Assembly: GCA_947631385.1 (NCBI GenBank)
Contig: CANRLE010000002.1
Span: 1 to 58,466, forward strand
Direction: 5' to 3'
Origin: an uncultured Clostridia bacterium
Lineage (GTDB): Bacteria; Bacillota; Clostridia; TANB77; CAG-508
DNA length: 58,466 bases
The position numbers and the translations under genes are program-made. Shown here one piece after another: positions 25,349 to 31,243 of the stretch (its first letter is position 1; each line of letters starts with the position of its first letter). The notes beneath the pieces are model-generated. The model was not told the origin of the DNA. It searched no databases and was given only the letters and a program-made list of their open reading frames with translations.

Positions 25349-25377
25349 TTGTGTAATTTTGCTAAATGTAGTATAAT
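25349..25377 (+). promoter_or_regulatory. Sigma-A-type promoter (TTGTGT-17 nt-TATAAT) for the FkbH-MBOAT operon
   Basis: Read directly in the 238-nt intergenic gap. A GGAGG RBS and GTG start follow at 25434. Confidence 0.5.
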
Positions 25378-25433
25378 AGGTGAGCAACATAATTTAATGT
25401 TGTAAAAATTATTTATTATATGGAGGAATAATA

Positions 25434-27215
25434 GTGAAACAGTTAGAATATCCATTTGATGAAAATTATTTAATAAAAAATAAGAAAAAAATAAAAAAAG
25501 AGTTACTACAAAAAGATGATTTAATAGAAAAAAACATAGCAATATTAGGAGGTTCAACTACTAGTGAAATAAAAAATATGTTAGAAATATTTTTACTAAA
25601 TTATGGAATTAAGCCCAATTTTTATGAATCAGAATATAATAAATTTTATGAAGATGCTATATTTGGAAATGAAGAGTTAGATAATTTTAAACCTGATATT
25701 ATATACATTCATACTACTAATAGAAATATTATGGAATATCCTAATATGTATGATGATGAAAATACAATTGTTGACAAACTTAATATGGAATATGAAAAAT
25801 TTAAAAAAATTTGGGATAAACTTTTTTCTAAATTTGATAGTACAATCATTCAAAATAATTTCGAATATCCATATTATAGATTATTAGGAAATAAAGATGC
25901 GGTTGATATTCATGGAAAGACGAATTTTATTACAAAGCTAAATCAAAAATTTTATGATTATGCAAATGTGACAAAAAATTTCTTTATTAATGATATTAAT
26001 TATATATCTTCTTGTTATGGCTTAGATAGATGGGCAAATCAATTTTATTGGCATATGTATAAGTATGCAATGGAAGTGCCAGCAATTCCATATTTATCAT
26101 TCAATTTAGCAAACATTATAAAATCAATATATGGAAAAAATAAAAAAGCACTAGTTTTAGATTTAGATAATACTTTATGGGGAGGAATAGTTGGAGATGA
26201 TGGAGTAGAAAATTTAGCTATAGGTCCAGAAGTACCAAGTGGACAAGTTTTTTCAGAATTTCAAAATTATTTAAAAGAACATAAAAATTTAGGAATTATA
26301 TTAAATGTAAACTCTAAAAATGAATATGAAAATGCAATTGCAGGACTTAATCATCCAGCAGGAACATTAAAACCAGATGATTTTATAATAATAAAAGCAA
26401 ATTGGAATCCAAAAAATTTAAATATAAAAGATATAGCAGAAGAATTAAATTTAGGAGCAGACAGTTTCGTATTTGTTGATGATAATCCGGCAGAAAGAAA
26501 AATAGTACAAAATTATATAGAAGGAATAGCTACGCCAGAAATAGATATACCAGAGAATTATATAAAAATAATAGATCACAATGGATATTTTGAAGTAACA
26601 AACTTTTCAAATGAAGACTTAAAGAAAAACGAATTATATAAAGATAATGCTAAAAGAAGCCAAATGATGGCGACATTTGATAATTATGAAGATTATCTAT
26701 TGTCATTAAAAATGAAAGCAGAAATAACAACATTTAAACCAATATATTTGGAAAGAATATCACAATTAAGCAACAAAAGTAATCAATTCAACTTAACAAC
26801 TAAAAGATATTCTTTAGCAGATATAGAAGCAGTAAATAATGATGACAATTATATAAAACTATATGGAAAATTAGAAGATATATTTGGAGATAATGGAGTT
26901 ATAACTGTTGTAATAGGAAATATAAAAAACAAAGATGAATTGCACATCGATTTATGGATAATGAGCTGTAGAGTTTTAAAAAGAAATATGGAATTTGCAA
27001 TGATGGACATGTTAGTAAAAAAAGCGCAGGAAAAAGGAATAAAAACTATATATGGATATTATTACCCAACAGCTAAAAATAAAATGGTTAATAATTTTTA
27101 CGATTTGCAGGGATTCGAAGAGATTTCTTGCGATGAGAAAGGAAATAAAAAATATAAGTTAGATATATCTAAGGGATATACTAATAAAAATAATGTAATA
27201 GAGGTGAATGAATGA
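25434..27215 (+). CDS. FkbH-like / HAD-superfamily subfamily IIIC enzyme (carrier-protein loading phosphatase-acyltransferase)
   Basis: Hallmark LVLDLDNTLWGGIVGDDGVENLAIG, then FVDDNPAER, then a GNAT-like C-terminus (NQFNLTTKRYS...WIMSCRVLKRNME). Confidence 0.8.
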   Translation: MKQLEYPFDENYLIKNKKKIKKELLQKDDLIEKNIAILGGSTTSEIKNMLEIFLLNYGIKPNFYESEYNKFYEDAIFGNEELDNFKPDIIYIHTTNRNIMEYPNMYDDENTIVDKLNMEYEKFKKIWDKLFSKFDSTIIQNNFEYPYYRLLGNKDAVDIHGKTNFITKLNQKFYDYANVTKNFFINDINYISSCYGLDRWANQFYWHMYKYAMEVPAIPYLSFNLANIIKSIYGKNKKALVLDLDNTLWGGIVGDDGVENLAIGPEVPSGQVFSEFQNYLKEHKNLGIILNVNSKNEYENAIAGLNHPAGTLKPDDFIIIKANWNPKNLNIKDIAEELNLGADSFVFVDDNPAERKIVQNYIEGIATPEIDIPENYIKIIDHNGYFEVTNFSNEDLKKNELYKDNAKRSQMMATFDNYEDYLLSLKMKAEITTFKPIYLERISQLSNKSNQFNLTTKRYSLADIEAVNNDDNYIKLYGKLEDIFGDNGVITVVIGNIKNKDELHIDLWIMSCRVLKRNMEFAMMDMLVKKAQEKGIKTIYGYYYPTAKNKMVNNFYDLQGFEEISCDEKGNKKYKLDISKGYTNKNNVIEVNE

Positions 27216-28653: not shown

Positions 28654-30195
28654 ATGGTTTTAACATCTTTTGTTTTCCTAATATTTTGTGTGATTACTAT
28701 ATTTATATATTATATTGTTCCAAAAAAGTTGCAGTGGTGTATTTTATTAATATCAAGTATTATTTTTTTGTTTTGGAATAATTTTAGTATATCAACAGTT
28801 ATACAAGCATTAATAGTTTTAATTCCAACTTATATTTTAGGAAGATTAATAGATAAAAATTATAATACAGAAAAAGCAAAAAAATTTTTAATTTTAGGAA
28901 TTTTAATAATTTTAGCACAATTAATTTATTTAAAATATACAAATTTATTTTTAACAACGGCTAATCATATATTTAATTTATTTAATATAGAGTATAAATT
29001 TAACCTTATATATAGAAATTCTTTGATAGGAATTAGTTATTATTCTTTAATTATGATTAGCTATTTAGTAGATATATACCGAGGAACTTGCAAAGCACAA
29101 AAAAACATATTAAAGTGTGCATTGTTTATGTCATATTTTCCAATACTTACTTCAGGACCATTTGTTAGATATGATAATATGGAAAATCAATTATATGAAA
29201 AACATAAGTTCAATTATAAAAATTTGTGTAATGGATTAATTAGAATTTTATGGGGAATGTTTAAAATATTAGTTATTTCTGAAAGATTAGGAATGATAGT
29301 AAATAGTATTTATGGAAATTTAAATGAATTTAACTTTATATTTATTTTTATGGCTGCTATTTTATTTCCTATACAATTATATACTAATTTTTCAGGTTCT
29401 ATTGATGTGATTATGGGAACATCAGAAATTATAGGAATCAAATTGCCAGAAAACTTTAGTTTACCATTTTTTTCAAGGACACTTGCAGAATTTTGGAGAA
29501 ATTGGCATATTACATTAGGGGCTTGGCTTAGGGATTATATTTTTTATCCATTACAAAAATCTAATGTTATGCAAAACCTAAACAAGAAATGCAAGAATAT
29601 ATTCGGTAAAAAAATTGCTAGAAAAATATCTATGTATCTTTCAATGATAATAATGTGGACATTAATAGGAATTTGGCATGGAGGAGCTTATACATATATA
29701 ATTGGTTCAGGATTATTACAATTTTTATTCATTTTTTTAGAAGATATATTAGGTCCAACTTCTAAAAAGATAAATAATAAATTAGGAATCAATACAGAGG
29801 TATTTAGCTATAAATTATACCAAGTAATAAGGACTTATTTGTTATTTTCTTTTGCTATGATTTTCTTTAAGGCTAATAGTGTAACTAATGCTATTGACAT
29901 TATAAGAGGGATTTTCACAATAAGTTTTAGTTCGCTATTTAGTAAAGAAAGGATTTATGCAATGATAAATAATATTGGACTAGATATGTTTGACTTCATA
30001 ATTTTAGTTGTTGCATTAATAGTATTATTTGGTATTCAATTATTAGCACGCAAAGGAAAGATTAGAGAAAAATTGTTTAATCAAAATATTGTATTTAGAT
30101 GGGTAGTTATTTATACTTTAATATTTGGAGTTATAATATTTGGATGCTATGGAGCTGGATATAATCCTACTGCTTTTATATACAGACAATTTTAA
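28654..30195 (+). CDS. MBOAT-family membrane O-acyltransferase (DltB/AlgI-like)
   Basis: Multi-TM. [21 protein letters not shown] contains the invariant MBOAT His. 513 aa. Confidence 0.85.
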   Translation: [513 protein letters not shown]

Positions 30196-30211
30196 GGAGG
30201 GAAATTATGTA

Positions 30212-31243
30212 ATGAAAAAAAATATAATTAAATCAATTGTATTTATATTCATTTTTTGTGCTATTTTATTTATTATTACTAAAATACTATGGTTGCCACC
30301 AAATGCTATTTCTTATTTTTATAAAGAAAAAGAAAATTCTTTAGATGTTGTTTATGTTGGAAGTAGTAATGTGTTGGCTCATTTTAATACAACGTTAGCA
30401 TATAATTTATATGGATATACAACAGGCATTTTATCTTCAAATGCGCAACCATTTGCTTTGATAAAGTATTTACTTAAAGAAGCAGAAAAATATCAAAATC
30501 CAAATTTATATATTGTAGATATAACAAAGATAACGGATGATATAGATTACTTTTCAACAGAAAATATTAGAGAATGCGTTGATAGTATGAAATTTTCTAG
30601 AAATAGAATAGAAGCAATTAATGAAGCATTAAGTTATAGAAAAGATGTTAGTAAGAATGAATATATAAATTATTATTTTAGTTTTTTAATGTATCATAAT
30701 AGATGGAAATATAATCCTAAGACTAATATTGTAGGAAACAAAAATTTTTATAAAGGATATTGGTTTACAAAAGAAACTTGTGAAGTAGTACCACAAAATA
30801 CCTATACTTGGAAAAAAGATTTAGTACCATTACAAGAAGATAATAAAAAAATATTAATAAGCTTAATTAATTATATTAATCAAAATAATTTAAAAGTATT
30901 ATTCGTAGTTCCTATAAGGTGTTATGATGAAGAACGAAATGGAAGATTGAATGATGCTATACGAATATTGCAAGAAAATGAATTAAATGTTATTAATTTT
31001 AATACATTAAACGATTTTGATGATATAGATTTTAGTAGGGATTTATATAATGAAGCACATTTGAATGTTTATGGAGCAACTAAATATACATTGTATTTTG
31101 CTAAATACTTAAAGGAAAATTATGAATTAGAAGATCATAGAAATGATGAAAATTATAGTTCATGGAACAAAGAATATGAAAGATTTAAAGAAAACTTTAA
31201 AAAAATGGTTAATAAAAATTATGAGGAATTGTTACAAAAATAA
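30212..31243 (+). CDS. Membrane-anchored extracytoplasmic DltD/SGNH-like acyl-transfer partner protein
   Basis: An AGGAGG RBS precedes ATG 30212; the ORF track's 30140 start overlaps the MBOAT gene. N-terminal TM, a VYVGSSNV block (compare GSSE in DltD) and C-terminal DLYNEAHLN (D..H). The family call is tentative. Confidence 0.45.
   Translation: MKKNIIKSIVFIFIFCAILFIITKILWLPPNAISYFYKEKENSLDVVYVGSSNVLAHFNTTLAYNLYGYTTGILSSNAQPFALIKYLLKEAEKYQNPNLYIVDITKITDDIDYFSTENIRECVDSMKFSRNRIEAINEALSYRKDVSKNEYINYYFSFLMYHNRWKYNPKTNIVGNKNFYKGYWFTKETCEVVPQNTYTWKKDLVPLQEDNKKILISLINYINQNNLKVLFVVPIRCYDEERNGRLNDAIRILQENELNVINFNTLNDFDDIDFSRDLYNEAHLNVYGATKYTLYFAKYLKENYELEDHRNDENYSSWNKEYERFKENFKKMVNKNYEELLQK

Follow-up and report, generated by a model that had tools for sequence, protein, structure and literature searches.

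Outside the membrane, bacterial envelope polymers are acylated mainly by pathways that pair a membrane-bound O-acyltransferase (MBOAT) with an SGNH-type protein, and to our knowledge only two types of acyl donor, acetyl-CoA and D-alanyl-DltC, have been described for them. Here, we report on a six-gene cassette in a 58,466-nucleotide stretch of DNA from an uncultured Clostridia bacterium (contig CANRLE010000002.1, hereafter the window), which combines an MBOAT and an SGNH-like partner with an acyl carrier protein (ACP), two tailoring enzymes and an FkbH-type enzyme. Judging from gene content, conserved motifs and gene linkage, we consider that the cassette probably constitutes a carrier-protein-dependent MBOAT/SGNH system that O-acylates the polysaccharide of the surrounding locus with a glycolysis-derived C3 hydroxy-acid. 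That this acyl group is specifically lactyl, by analogy with polyketide starter units, is a more tentative proposal, to which we give somewhat less than even weight.

In the Dlt pathway, an acyl thioester on a small carrier protein is passed through an MBOAT to a membrane-anchored SGNH-type protein and on to an envelope polymer, and the cassette appears to follow the same logic. It departs from Dlt in that there is no adenylating ligase, FkbH being predicted to act as loader with an acyl phosphate from glycolysis, and in having on-carrier tailoring enzymes and a location in a capsule-type locus. Its MBOAT is about 100 residues longer than DltB and carries a fused FxYxxF motif, with no DltX, and the sixth protein, termed P6, has no match to Pfam DltD. 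By profile scores and gene content, the cassette is not a member of the Dlt family, differing in DltA, the DltB equivalog score, DltC and DltX.

FxYxxF is an acyl-tyrosine shuttle motif that resides on DltX in the Dlt pathway and is fused to PatA and other MBOATs (PMC12148441). The cassette shares an MBOAT with a C-terminal FxYxxF and a separate extracytoplasmic SGNH partner with the PatA/PatB, AlgI/AlgJ/AlgX and WssH/WssI systems (PMC12148441). However, MBOAT/SGNH pathways other than Dlt are stated to operate without a carrier protein, acyl-CoA being the donor (PMC12148441, 2025). Unlike in PatA/PatB-type systems, a dedicated ACP and its loader (59 of 61 loci, see below), along with tailoring enzymes, are tied to the MBOAT of the cassette, and the predicted acyl group is a hydroxy-acid rather than acetyl.

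The donor side of the cassette recalls the dehydratase-ketoreductase-FkbH-ACP loading modules of polyketide synthases and nonribosomal peptide synthetases (FkbH, OzmB, Tmn16-type tetronate systems and lactate starters), which likewise combine an FkbH protein bearing HAD motifs and a conserved Cys with a dedicated ACP. FkbH loading modules have been taken to yield D-lactate-ACP (PMC7901079), and lankacidin has been proposed to start from pyruvoyl- or lactoyl-ACP made out of 1,3-bisphosphoglycerate (PMC6162330). As in lactate-starter modules, a dehydratase and a ketoreductase are predicted to convert glyceryl via pyruvoyl to lactoyl on the carrier, so that the chemistry suggested for the cassette by a first-pass annotation of the window has precedent in polyketide starter-unit formation. 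In contrast to these modules, the MaoC dehydratase and the short-chain reductase (SDR) are discrete proteins, no ketosynthase or condensation enzyme comes next, and the predicted recipient of the acyl group on the ACP is an acyltransferase in the membrane. The donor module is, by its sequence, a bona fide FkbH-family member outside polyketide or nonribosomal peptide assembly. In a literature search that did not cover subscription journals, FkbH was never tied to an MBOAT envelope system, the two being mentioned together only in two unrelated cyanobacterial natural-product papers; the annotators' remark that they knew of no characterised system with this architecture in a capsule or teichoic-acid setting agrees with this result.

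Organization of the cassette

The six genes (Table 1) are co-directional and as tightly spaced as first described, with overlaps of 4 and 8 bases, gaps of 16-23 bases and a Shine-Dalgarno-like sequence at every start. The profile searches recovered every domain assigned in the first-pass annotation to the first five genes, with scores over the curated cutoff wherever the models used for these assignments have one. No AMP-binding enzyme was detected by these searches in any large open reading frame (ORF) of the window, in line with the earlier statement that an adenylating ligase is absent from it.

The cassette had also been said to lie behind its own promoter. The leader contains TATAAT at 25372-25377 but only a weak -35 element at 25349-25354, matching in three of six bases, and we regard a separate promoter as plausible. 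In a promoter scan, promoter-like sites were rarer than in shuffled sequence and terminators were not found; because the window is AT-rich (about 25% G+C, with coding almost wholly on the plus strand), the scan is uninformative and the transcription unit cannot be defined from it. A search of the whole window against Rfam gave no match. An exact-sequence look-up returned no record for the FkbH or MBOAT protein of the window, and their context was therefore taken from homologues.

Table 1. Positions of the cassette genes and of neighbouring features in the window.
Feature	Position	Strand	Size	Basis or remark
Intergenic leader	25196-25433	+	238 bases	Sequence read; GGAGG ribosome-binding site
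FkbH/HAD-IIIC loader	25434-27215	+	593 aa	TIGR01686, TIGR01681, PF21211, PDB 3slr
Acyl carrier protein	27212-27460	+	82 aa	PP-binding and generic ACP models
MaoC hot-dog (R)-hydratase/dehydratase	27484-27906	+		PF01575 MaoC_dehydratas, 2e-10
FabG-like short-chain ketoreductase (SDR)	27899-28633	+		adh_short, adh_short_C2
MBOAT	28654-30195	+	513 aa	PF03062, 3e-9
P6, membrane-anchored DltD-like/SGNH-like putative transferase	30212-31243	+	343 aa	Predicted fold
Capsule/exopolysaccharide-type locus	1 to ~39,600			Wzx/Wzy type
UDP-galactopyranose mutase	1712-2812			Polysaccharide locus
HpcH-like/Ldh_2 gene pair	7781-9651			Polysaccharide locus
AT3 acyltransferase	9638-10684			Polysaccharide locus
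Pyruvyl transferase	13442-14395			Polysaccharide locus
UDP-galactopyranose mutase	18951-20057			Polysaccharide locus
Nucleotidyltransferase-kinase fusion and DUF711/UPF0210 protein	22848-25195			Between Wzx and cassette
Surface-protein and sortase genes	31341-36199			Directly 3' of cassette

The FkbH loader and its carrier protein

The placement of the first gene in the FkbH/HAD-IIIC family was confirmed by a score of 254.9 bits on TIGR01686 (cutoff 146.65) over profile positions 3-320 of 323, by 64.3 bits on the HAD-IIIC model TIGR01681 (cutoff 35.75) and by a match to PF21211 (FkbH_N). Residues 29-393 match PDB 3slr (BF1531) with an E-value of 3e-50. Three domains make up the protein: FkbH_N, the HAD phosphatase and, at the C-terminal end, a GNAT-like domain that matches GNAT folds in the predicted model. 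The HAD motifs DxDxT, S/T-K and DD (D243, D245, T247, S294-K295 and D349-D350) are invariant in all 75 relatives compared, as is Cys512 (MSCRVLKR) in the C-terminal domain. Conservation of the HAD aspartates points to an acyl donor that is phosphorylated. In OzmB, a conserved Cys of the C-terminal domain reportedly serves as the nucleophile that forms the acyl-S-enzyme.

At the FkbH stop codon, 4 bases are shared with the ACP gene. The ACP, described in the first-pass annotation as a carrier protein with a DSL serine, indeed matches PP-binding (21.4 bits, cutoff 20.8), and Ser40 (DWDSLEH), the predicted phosphopantetheine site, is invariant in 77/77 relatives. Its 12 NCBIfam matches are generic ACP models only, with DltC not among them.

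The searched literature on FkbH-like proteins and glyceryl-ACP deals with natural products, a Campylobacter jejuni flagellar glycan paper excepted, and a unit making a small molecule (a tetronate, a butenolide or a polyketide-like compound) with no role in the envelope would follow that precedent. We consider this very improbable. Ketosynthase, FabH-like, condensation and thioesterase genes are neither present in the window nor conserved in the cassette, which sits within polysaccharide loci of many species, and the donor module is partnered by an MBOAT in the membrane and by an extracytoplasmic SGNH-like protein that in some cases bears Fn3 extensions.

The membrane acyltransferase and P6

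The assignment of the fifth gene to the MBOAT family held in the profile search (Table 1), and the sole PDB sequence matches of its product are to DltB (1e-13). On the DltB equivalog model TIGR04091, it scores 130.5 bits against a cutoff of 375, and with a score so far under the cutoff it is not a DltB equivalog. His285 and His342, aligned to the histidines of the DltB WHM and WHG motifs, are invariant in 66/66 relatives. The protein ends in FIYRQF, an FxYxxF motif whose F508 and Y510 are likewise invariant (66/66). The motif is C-terminal in 64 of the 70 MBOAT ORFs from genome loci and 64 of the 73 from metagenome loci, and the genome-locus ORFs lacking it are mostly truncated. With FxYxxF fused to the MBOAT's C-terminus, no DltX would be needed.

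P6 had no match in Pfam (DltD included), NCBIfam or the sequences of the PDB. As PDB sequence and profile searches gave noise only, a fold comparison was needed. We place its start at the ATG at 30212, which is preceded by the ribosome-binding site AAGGAGGG; a start at the TTG at 30140 would agree less well with homologue lengths. The AlphaFold model, built from a 40-sequence alignment, is confident (predicted local distance difference test score (pLDDT) 94.2, predicted template-modelling score (pTM) 0.92) and begins with a hydrophobic, presumed membrane helix. DltD structures take the first seven places among its Foldseek matches in the PDB (E-values 1e-4 to 1e-3, template-modelling scores 0.32-0.38), with SGNH hydrolases and PatB coming next, in agreement with the earlier description of a membrane-anchored DltD/SGNH-like protein. 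Ser52 in the motif G50-x-S52, the candidate nucleophile, is Ser in 39 of 40 sequences, and the putative catalytic His283 of the [N/D]280-x-x-H283 motif is present in all 40.

The P6 family is large, comprising 7,953 clusters at 50% identity (E <= 1e-3). Some members carry Fn3 extensions, suggesting an extracellular location, and in one fusion (P0353) P6 follows an AT3 acyltransferase domain, an arrangement that resembles AT3-SGNH enzymes such as OatA and OafA. An 868-residue protein (P0372) was considered as a possible MBOAT-P6 fusion and rejected, its N-terminal half having no similarity to MBOAT. The loci L024 (12027-19989), L006 and L032 have three to five P6 paralogues for one MBOAT, arranged for the most part in tandem downstream of the MBOAT gene.

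Conservation of the cassette as a unit

Close relatives of the FkbH protein were found in at least 552 species-level genomes by a pattern scan of species-representative genomes, and more than 120 cluster representatives share 78-92% identity with it. We annotated the 80 best FkbH loci with phmmer and counted linkage in the 61 that extend at least 6 kb downstream of FkbH. An ACP gene directly follows FkbH in all 61, a cassette-type MBOAT is present in 59, often adjoining the ACP gene, and P6 is present in 55, or 56 after a hidden Markov model (HMM) search recovered the copy of Acetivibrio ethanolgignens. This neighbourhood survey supports a single functional unit, as the first-pass annotation had implied. 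The linked loci span many species of Clostridia, Bacilli, Lachnospiraceae, Erysipelotrichales and Muribaculaceae, and the nearest relatives of the window are metagenome-assembled genomes of uncultured Clostridia and Bacilli from rabbit gut. The cultured strain A. ethanolgignens ACET-33324 (L073 10001-15771, NZ_LNAM01000160.1) has the same gene order, FkbH, ACP, MaoC, SDR, MBOAT and P6.

In comparisons of 30-77 relatives, the catalytic residues of each of the six proteins show little or no variation. Median identity to the window falls from 84.5% for FkbH and 82.7% for ACP to 75% for SDR, 72% for MaoC, 65% for the MBOAT and 51% for P6, and P6 occurs in 2-5 tandem copies in some loci. The drop in identity from the cytoplasm outwards, together with tandem P6 copies, fits a constant donor and variable acceptors, and where one MBOAT has several P6 proteins, a single donor pathway may supply several acceptor positions. 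Where the cassette MBOAT is missing, the locus tends to encode an AlgI-like MBOAT and its AlgX/DHHW partner, with a VOC gene beside FkbH-ACP.

Tailoring enzymes and the identity of the acyl group

The MaoC protein contains the hydratase-2 motif TGDINPLH, with the predicted catalytic residues Asp35 and His40 invariant in 37/37 relatives, and the SDR motifs TGASSDIG, Tyr152 and Lys156 are conserved in 30/30. Both enzymes were thus recognised correctly in the first-pass annotation (Table 1). In the 61 loci, MaoC and SDR are one tailoring option among several, and we predict lactyl for the variant of the window only. MaoC and SDR occur in 19 loci, with three more that add a VOC (Glyoxalase_4) protein and one that adds a transketolase; 22 loci have the VOC protein, 7 have MaoC with a DkgA-like aldo-keto reductase and a split transketolase, and 9 have no tailoring gene.

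The VOC protein, of 125-164 residues, replaces MaoC and SDR in the interval between ACP and MBOAT (e.g., L015 12030-12416 and L042 8571-8948) and shows weak similarity to methylmalonyl-CoA epimerase and glyoxalase I, whose substrates are 2-substituted acyl thioesters. The split transketolase and aldo-keto reductase accompany FkbH, ACP, MaoC, MBOAT and P6 in L067 (9944-19775), L074 (5125-12891), L068, L071, L077, L080 and L081, which suggests a different, possibly longer, acyl group. We rejected the aldo-keto reductase as a clean substitute for SDR because it always occurs together with the split transketolase genes, and therefore counted it as a variant and not as proof of ketoreduction.

The same machinery could transfer an acyl group other than lactyl: glyceryl, if MaoC and SDR acted elsewhere, pyruvoyl, if SDR were no 2-ketoreductase, or another C3/C4 acid. 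Glyceryl-type products must exist in the family, given the nine loci with no tailoring gene and the 22 with VOC only; some cassettes add split transketolase subunits, and the SDR of the window also scores 89.8 bits on the FabL enoyl-reductase model. For the window itself we nevertheless consider a non-lactyl product unlikely. The MaoC and SDR genes overlap by 8 bases and are placed between ACP and MBOAT, MaoC is never found without a reductase (SDR or DkgA-like in 30/30 MaoC loci), the top named NCBIfam matches of SDR are the ketoreductases YmfI and FabG, and the route of dehydration followed by reduction to lactoyl-ACP has the precedent cited above. Tentative as it is, lactyl is the acyl group assumed for the window in the pathway below.

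Ligase-loaded sister loci

The idea that FkbH takes the place of DltA received independent support from loci in which MBOAT and P6 relatives are combined with a ligase. In L085 (8001-14695), as also in L086, the gene for a 1079-residue AT3-P6-Fn3 fusion comes first, and after it lie those for a DltC-like carrier, an MBOAT and a ligase of the AMP-forming type. The L085 MBOAT shares 34% identity with that of the window across the whole protein (E 2e-108), and its C-terminal motif is FIYGRF. In loci of this type, MBOAT, carrier and ligase all score under the Dlt equivalog cutoffs, the ligase is nearest to fatty-acyl or aryl-CoA ligases, and P6 has no Pfam DltD match, with two of the P6 proteins weakly matching a GDSL model. 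We rejected these loci as ordinary dlt operons on the grounds of the sub-cutoff scores and of P6; they appear to form a Dlt-like family that is so far uncharacterised.

With this MBOAT subfamily as seed, a survey of metagenomes gave 42 loci with adequate flanks. Next to the subfamily MBOAT, 20 of these have a ligase, a carrier and P6, and 5 have FkbH and ACP. The ligase loci (e.g., L085, L091, L096 and L108) have the MBOAT subfamily, the C-terminal motif, the P6 family and a carrier gene beside the MBOAT in common with the window, and differ from it in using an AMP-forming ligase as loader, without FkbH, MaoC or SDR. That the same MBOAT subfamily and P6 occur with either a ligase or FkbH points to alternative, interchangeable-looking loaders for one chassis.

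Proposed pathway and its alternatives

In the pathway that we propose for the window, FkbH would take up 1,3-bisphosphoglycerate, remove the 3-phosphate with its HAD domain and, by way of Cys512, transfer the glyceryl unit onto the ACP's phosphopantetheine arm. MaoC would then eliminate the 3-hydroxyl of glyceryl-ACP to give the enol of pyruvoyl-ACP, and SDR would reduce the C2 keto group of pyruvoyl-ACP to yield lactyl-ACP. By analogy with PatAB and Dlt, we infer that the ACP delivers the acyl group to the MBOAT on the cytoplasmic side of the membrane and that Tyr510 in the FIYRQF tail bears it to the outer side, where P6 would receive it on Ser52 and form an ester with a hydroxyl group on a sugar in the polymer. 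Inferred parts of this scheme are the substrate, the sequence of the tailoring reactions, the hand-off from ACP to MBOAT and the acceptor. The acceptor had been proposed to be an envelope glycopolymer, such as a capsule or teichoic acid; the Wzx/Wzy capsule-type locus with its LCP ligase supports an envelope glycopolymer, but the locus is not a teichoic-acid locus.

Several observations weigh against this pathway. The specificity of FkbH for 1,3-bisphosphoglycerate is extrapolated from family membership and polyketide homologues, and the model of the whole FkbH protein, whose alignment was shallow (17 sequences), has a poor pLDDT of 62.9, for which reason we used only its C-terminal domain together with the 3slr match. 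The fold similarity of P6 to DltD is modest (template-modelling scores 0.32-0.45, E-values about 1e-4), and the position three residues before His283 is Asn, not Asp, in 28 of 40 sequences. Fused FxYxxF motifs are elsewhere typical of MBOATs that use acyl-CoA, and in 13 of the 42 metagenome loci P6 is present with no detectable carrier or loader nearby, which means that the MBOAT subfamily is not strictly carrier-dependent. Our literature search found nothing relevant on ester-linked lactyl or glyceroyl groups on polysaccharides and, in particular, no such ester on a Clostridia polysaccharide.

The last points on the MBOAT would also suit a division into two functions, in which MBOAT and P6 acetylate the polymer from acetyl-CoA in the manner of AlgI/AlgJ or PatA/PatB, while the acyl group made by FkbH, ACP, MaoC and SDR goes to a sugar nucleotide or lipid in the cytoplasm. 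The FkbH-domain gene cj1302 could be read likewise, as it lies in the flagellin glycosylation locus of Campylobacter jejuni with no MBOAT link described. We hold this division to be improbable. No other conserved acyltransferase that could unload the ACP, in the cytoplasm or elsewhere, was found in the related loci, ACP and MBOAT are linked in nearly all of them and their genes are often directly adjacent, and acetylation would be covered by a further MBOAT, AlgI-like and distinct from the first, that several loci carry along with an AlgX/DHHW partner. Moreover, in the ligase-loaded loci, the same MBOAT subfamily and P6 are combined with a carrier in the manner of Dlt. Carrier-dependent acylation by the cassette as one unit remains the reading that we prefer.

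The surrounding polysaccharide locus

The cassette lies within a capsule/exopolysaccharide-type (Wzx/Wzy) locus of the low-GC Clostridia host (Table 1). Profile searches identified in it an LCP ligase, a CapD-like dehydratase, a priming phosphoglycosyl transferase, GT2 and GT4 glycosyltransferases, EpsG/Wzy and Wzx, and the cassette is followed by surface-protein and sortase genes and then by CpsC, CpsD and CpsB. With two UDP-galactopyranose mutase genes, a pyruvyl transferase and an AT3 acyltransferase in the same locus, the polymer probably contains galactofuranose and several decorations.

Other gene groups in the locus are described here in their own right. The pair at 7781-9651 encodes an HpcH/PEP-utilising-like protein followed by an Ldh_2 enzyme that is nearest to L-sulfolactate dehydrogenase (280 bits, under that model's cutoff), and it is a possible second hydroxy-acid pathway of the same locus. 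Between Wzx and the cassette, a 380-residue fusion of an NTP_transf_3 (MobA/CofC-like) nucleotidyltransferase with a ParB_N/SerK-like kinase domain is encoded by a gene whose stop codon overlaps the start of the gene for a 401-residue DUF711/UPF0210 protein (PF05167, 1e-56); this pair may provide a nucleotide-activated phospho-acid substituent. Directly 3' of the cassette and before cpsC/D/B, there are genes for a leucine-rich repeat protein whose C-terminal part is a dockerin, two secreted proteins that matched no family and a sortase.

Implications

The cassette predicts a third class of donor for MBOAT/SGNH pathways, a hydroxy-acyl-ACP made directly from a glycolytic intermediate, and together with the ligase-loaded sister loci it makes carrier-dependent MBOAT systems look far broader than Dlt. 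A wider proposition, which we regard as nearly evenly balanced though leaning slightly towards the negative, is that the window represents one branch of a large, unrecognised superfamily of carrier-dependent MBOAT/P6 systems by which surface glycans would be marked with a combinatorial 'acyl code'. The code would be composed by interchangeable loaders (FkbH, supplied from glycolysis, or AMP-ligases, supplied with free acids) and by interchangeable on-carrier tailoring through dehydratase and reductase, VOC epimerase-like proteins or transketolase, and duplicated extracellular P6 proteins would set the acceptor position.

If this holds true, ester-linked lactyl or glyceryl groups would be common and overlooked on the capsules of gut Firmicutes and Bacteroidota. 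Such esters are base-labile and thus easily lost during standard polysaccharide work-ups. Acetivibrio ethanolgignens, with its complete cassette, is a candidate experimental model. Cassette-type systems are widespread in gut bacteria, and the esters, if present, would alter the charge, hydration, antigenicity and phage-receptor properties of the capsules of gut commensals.

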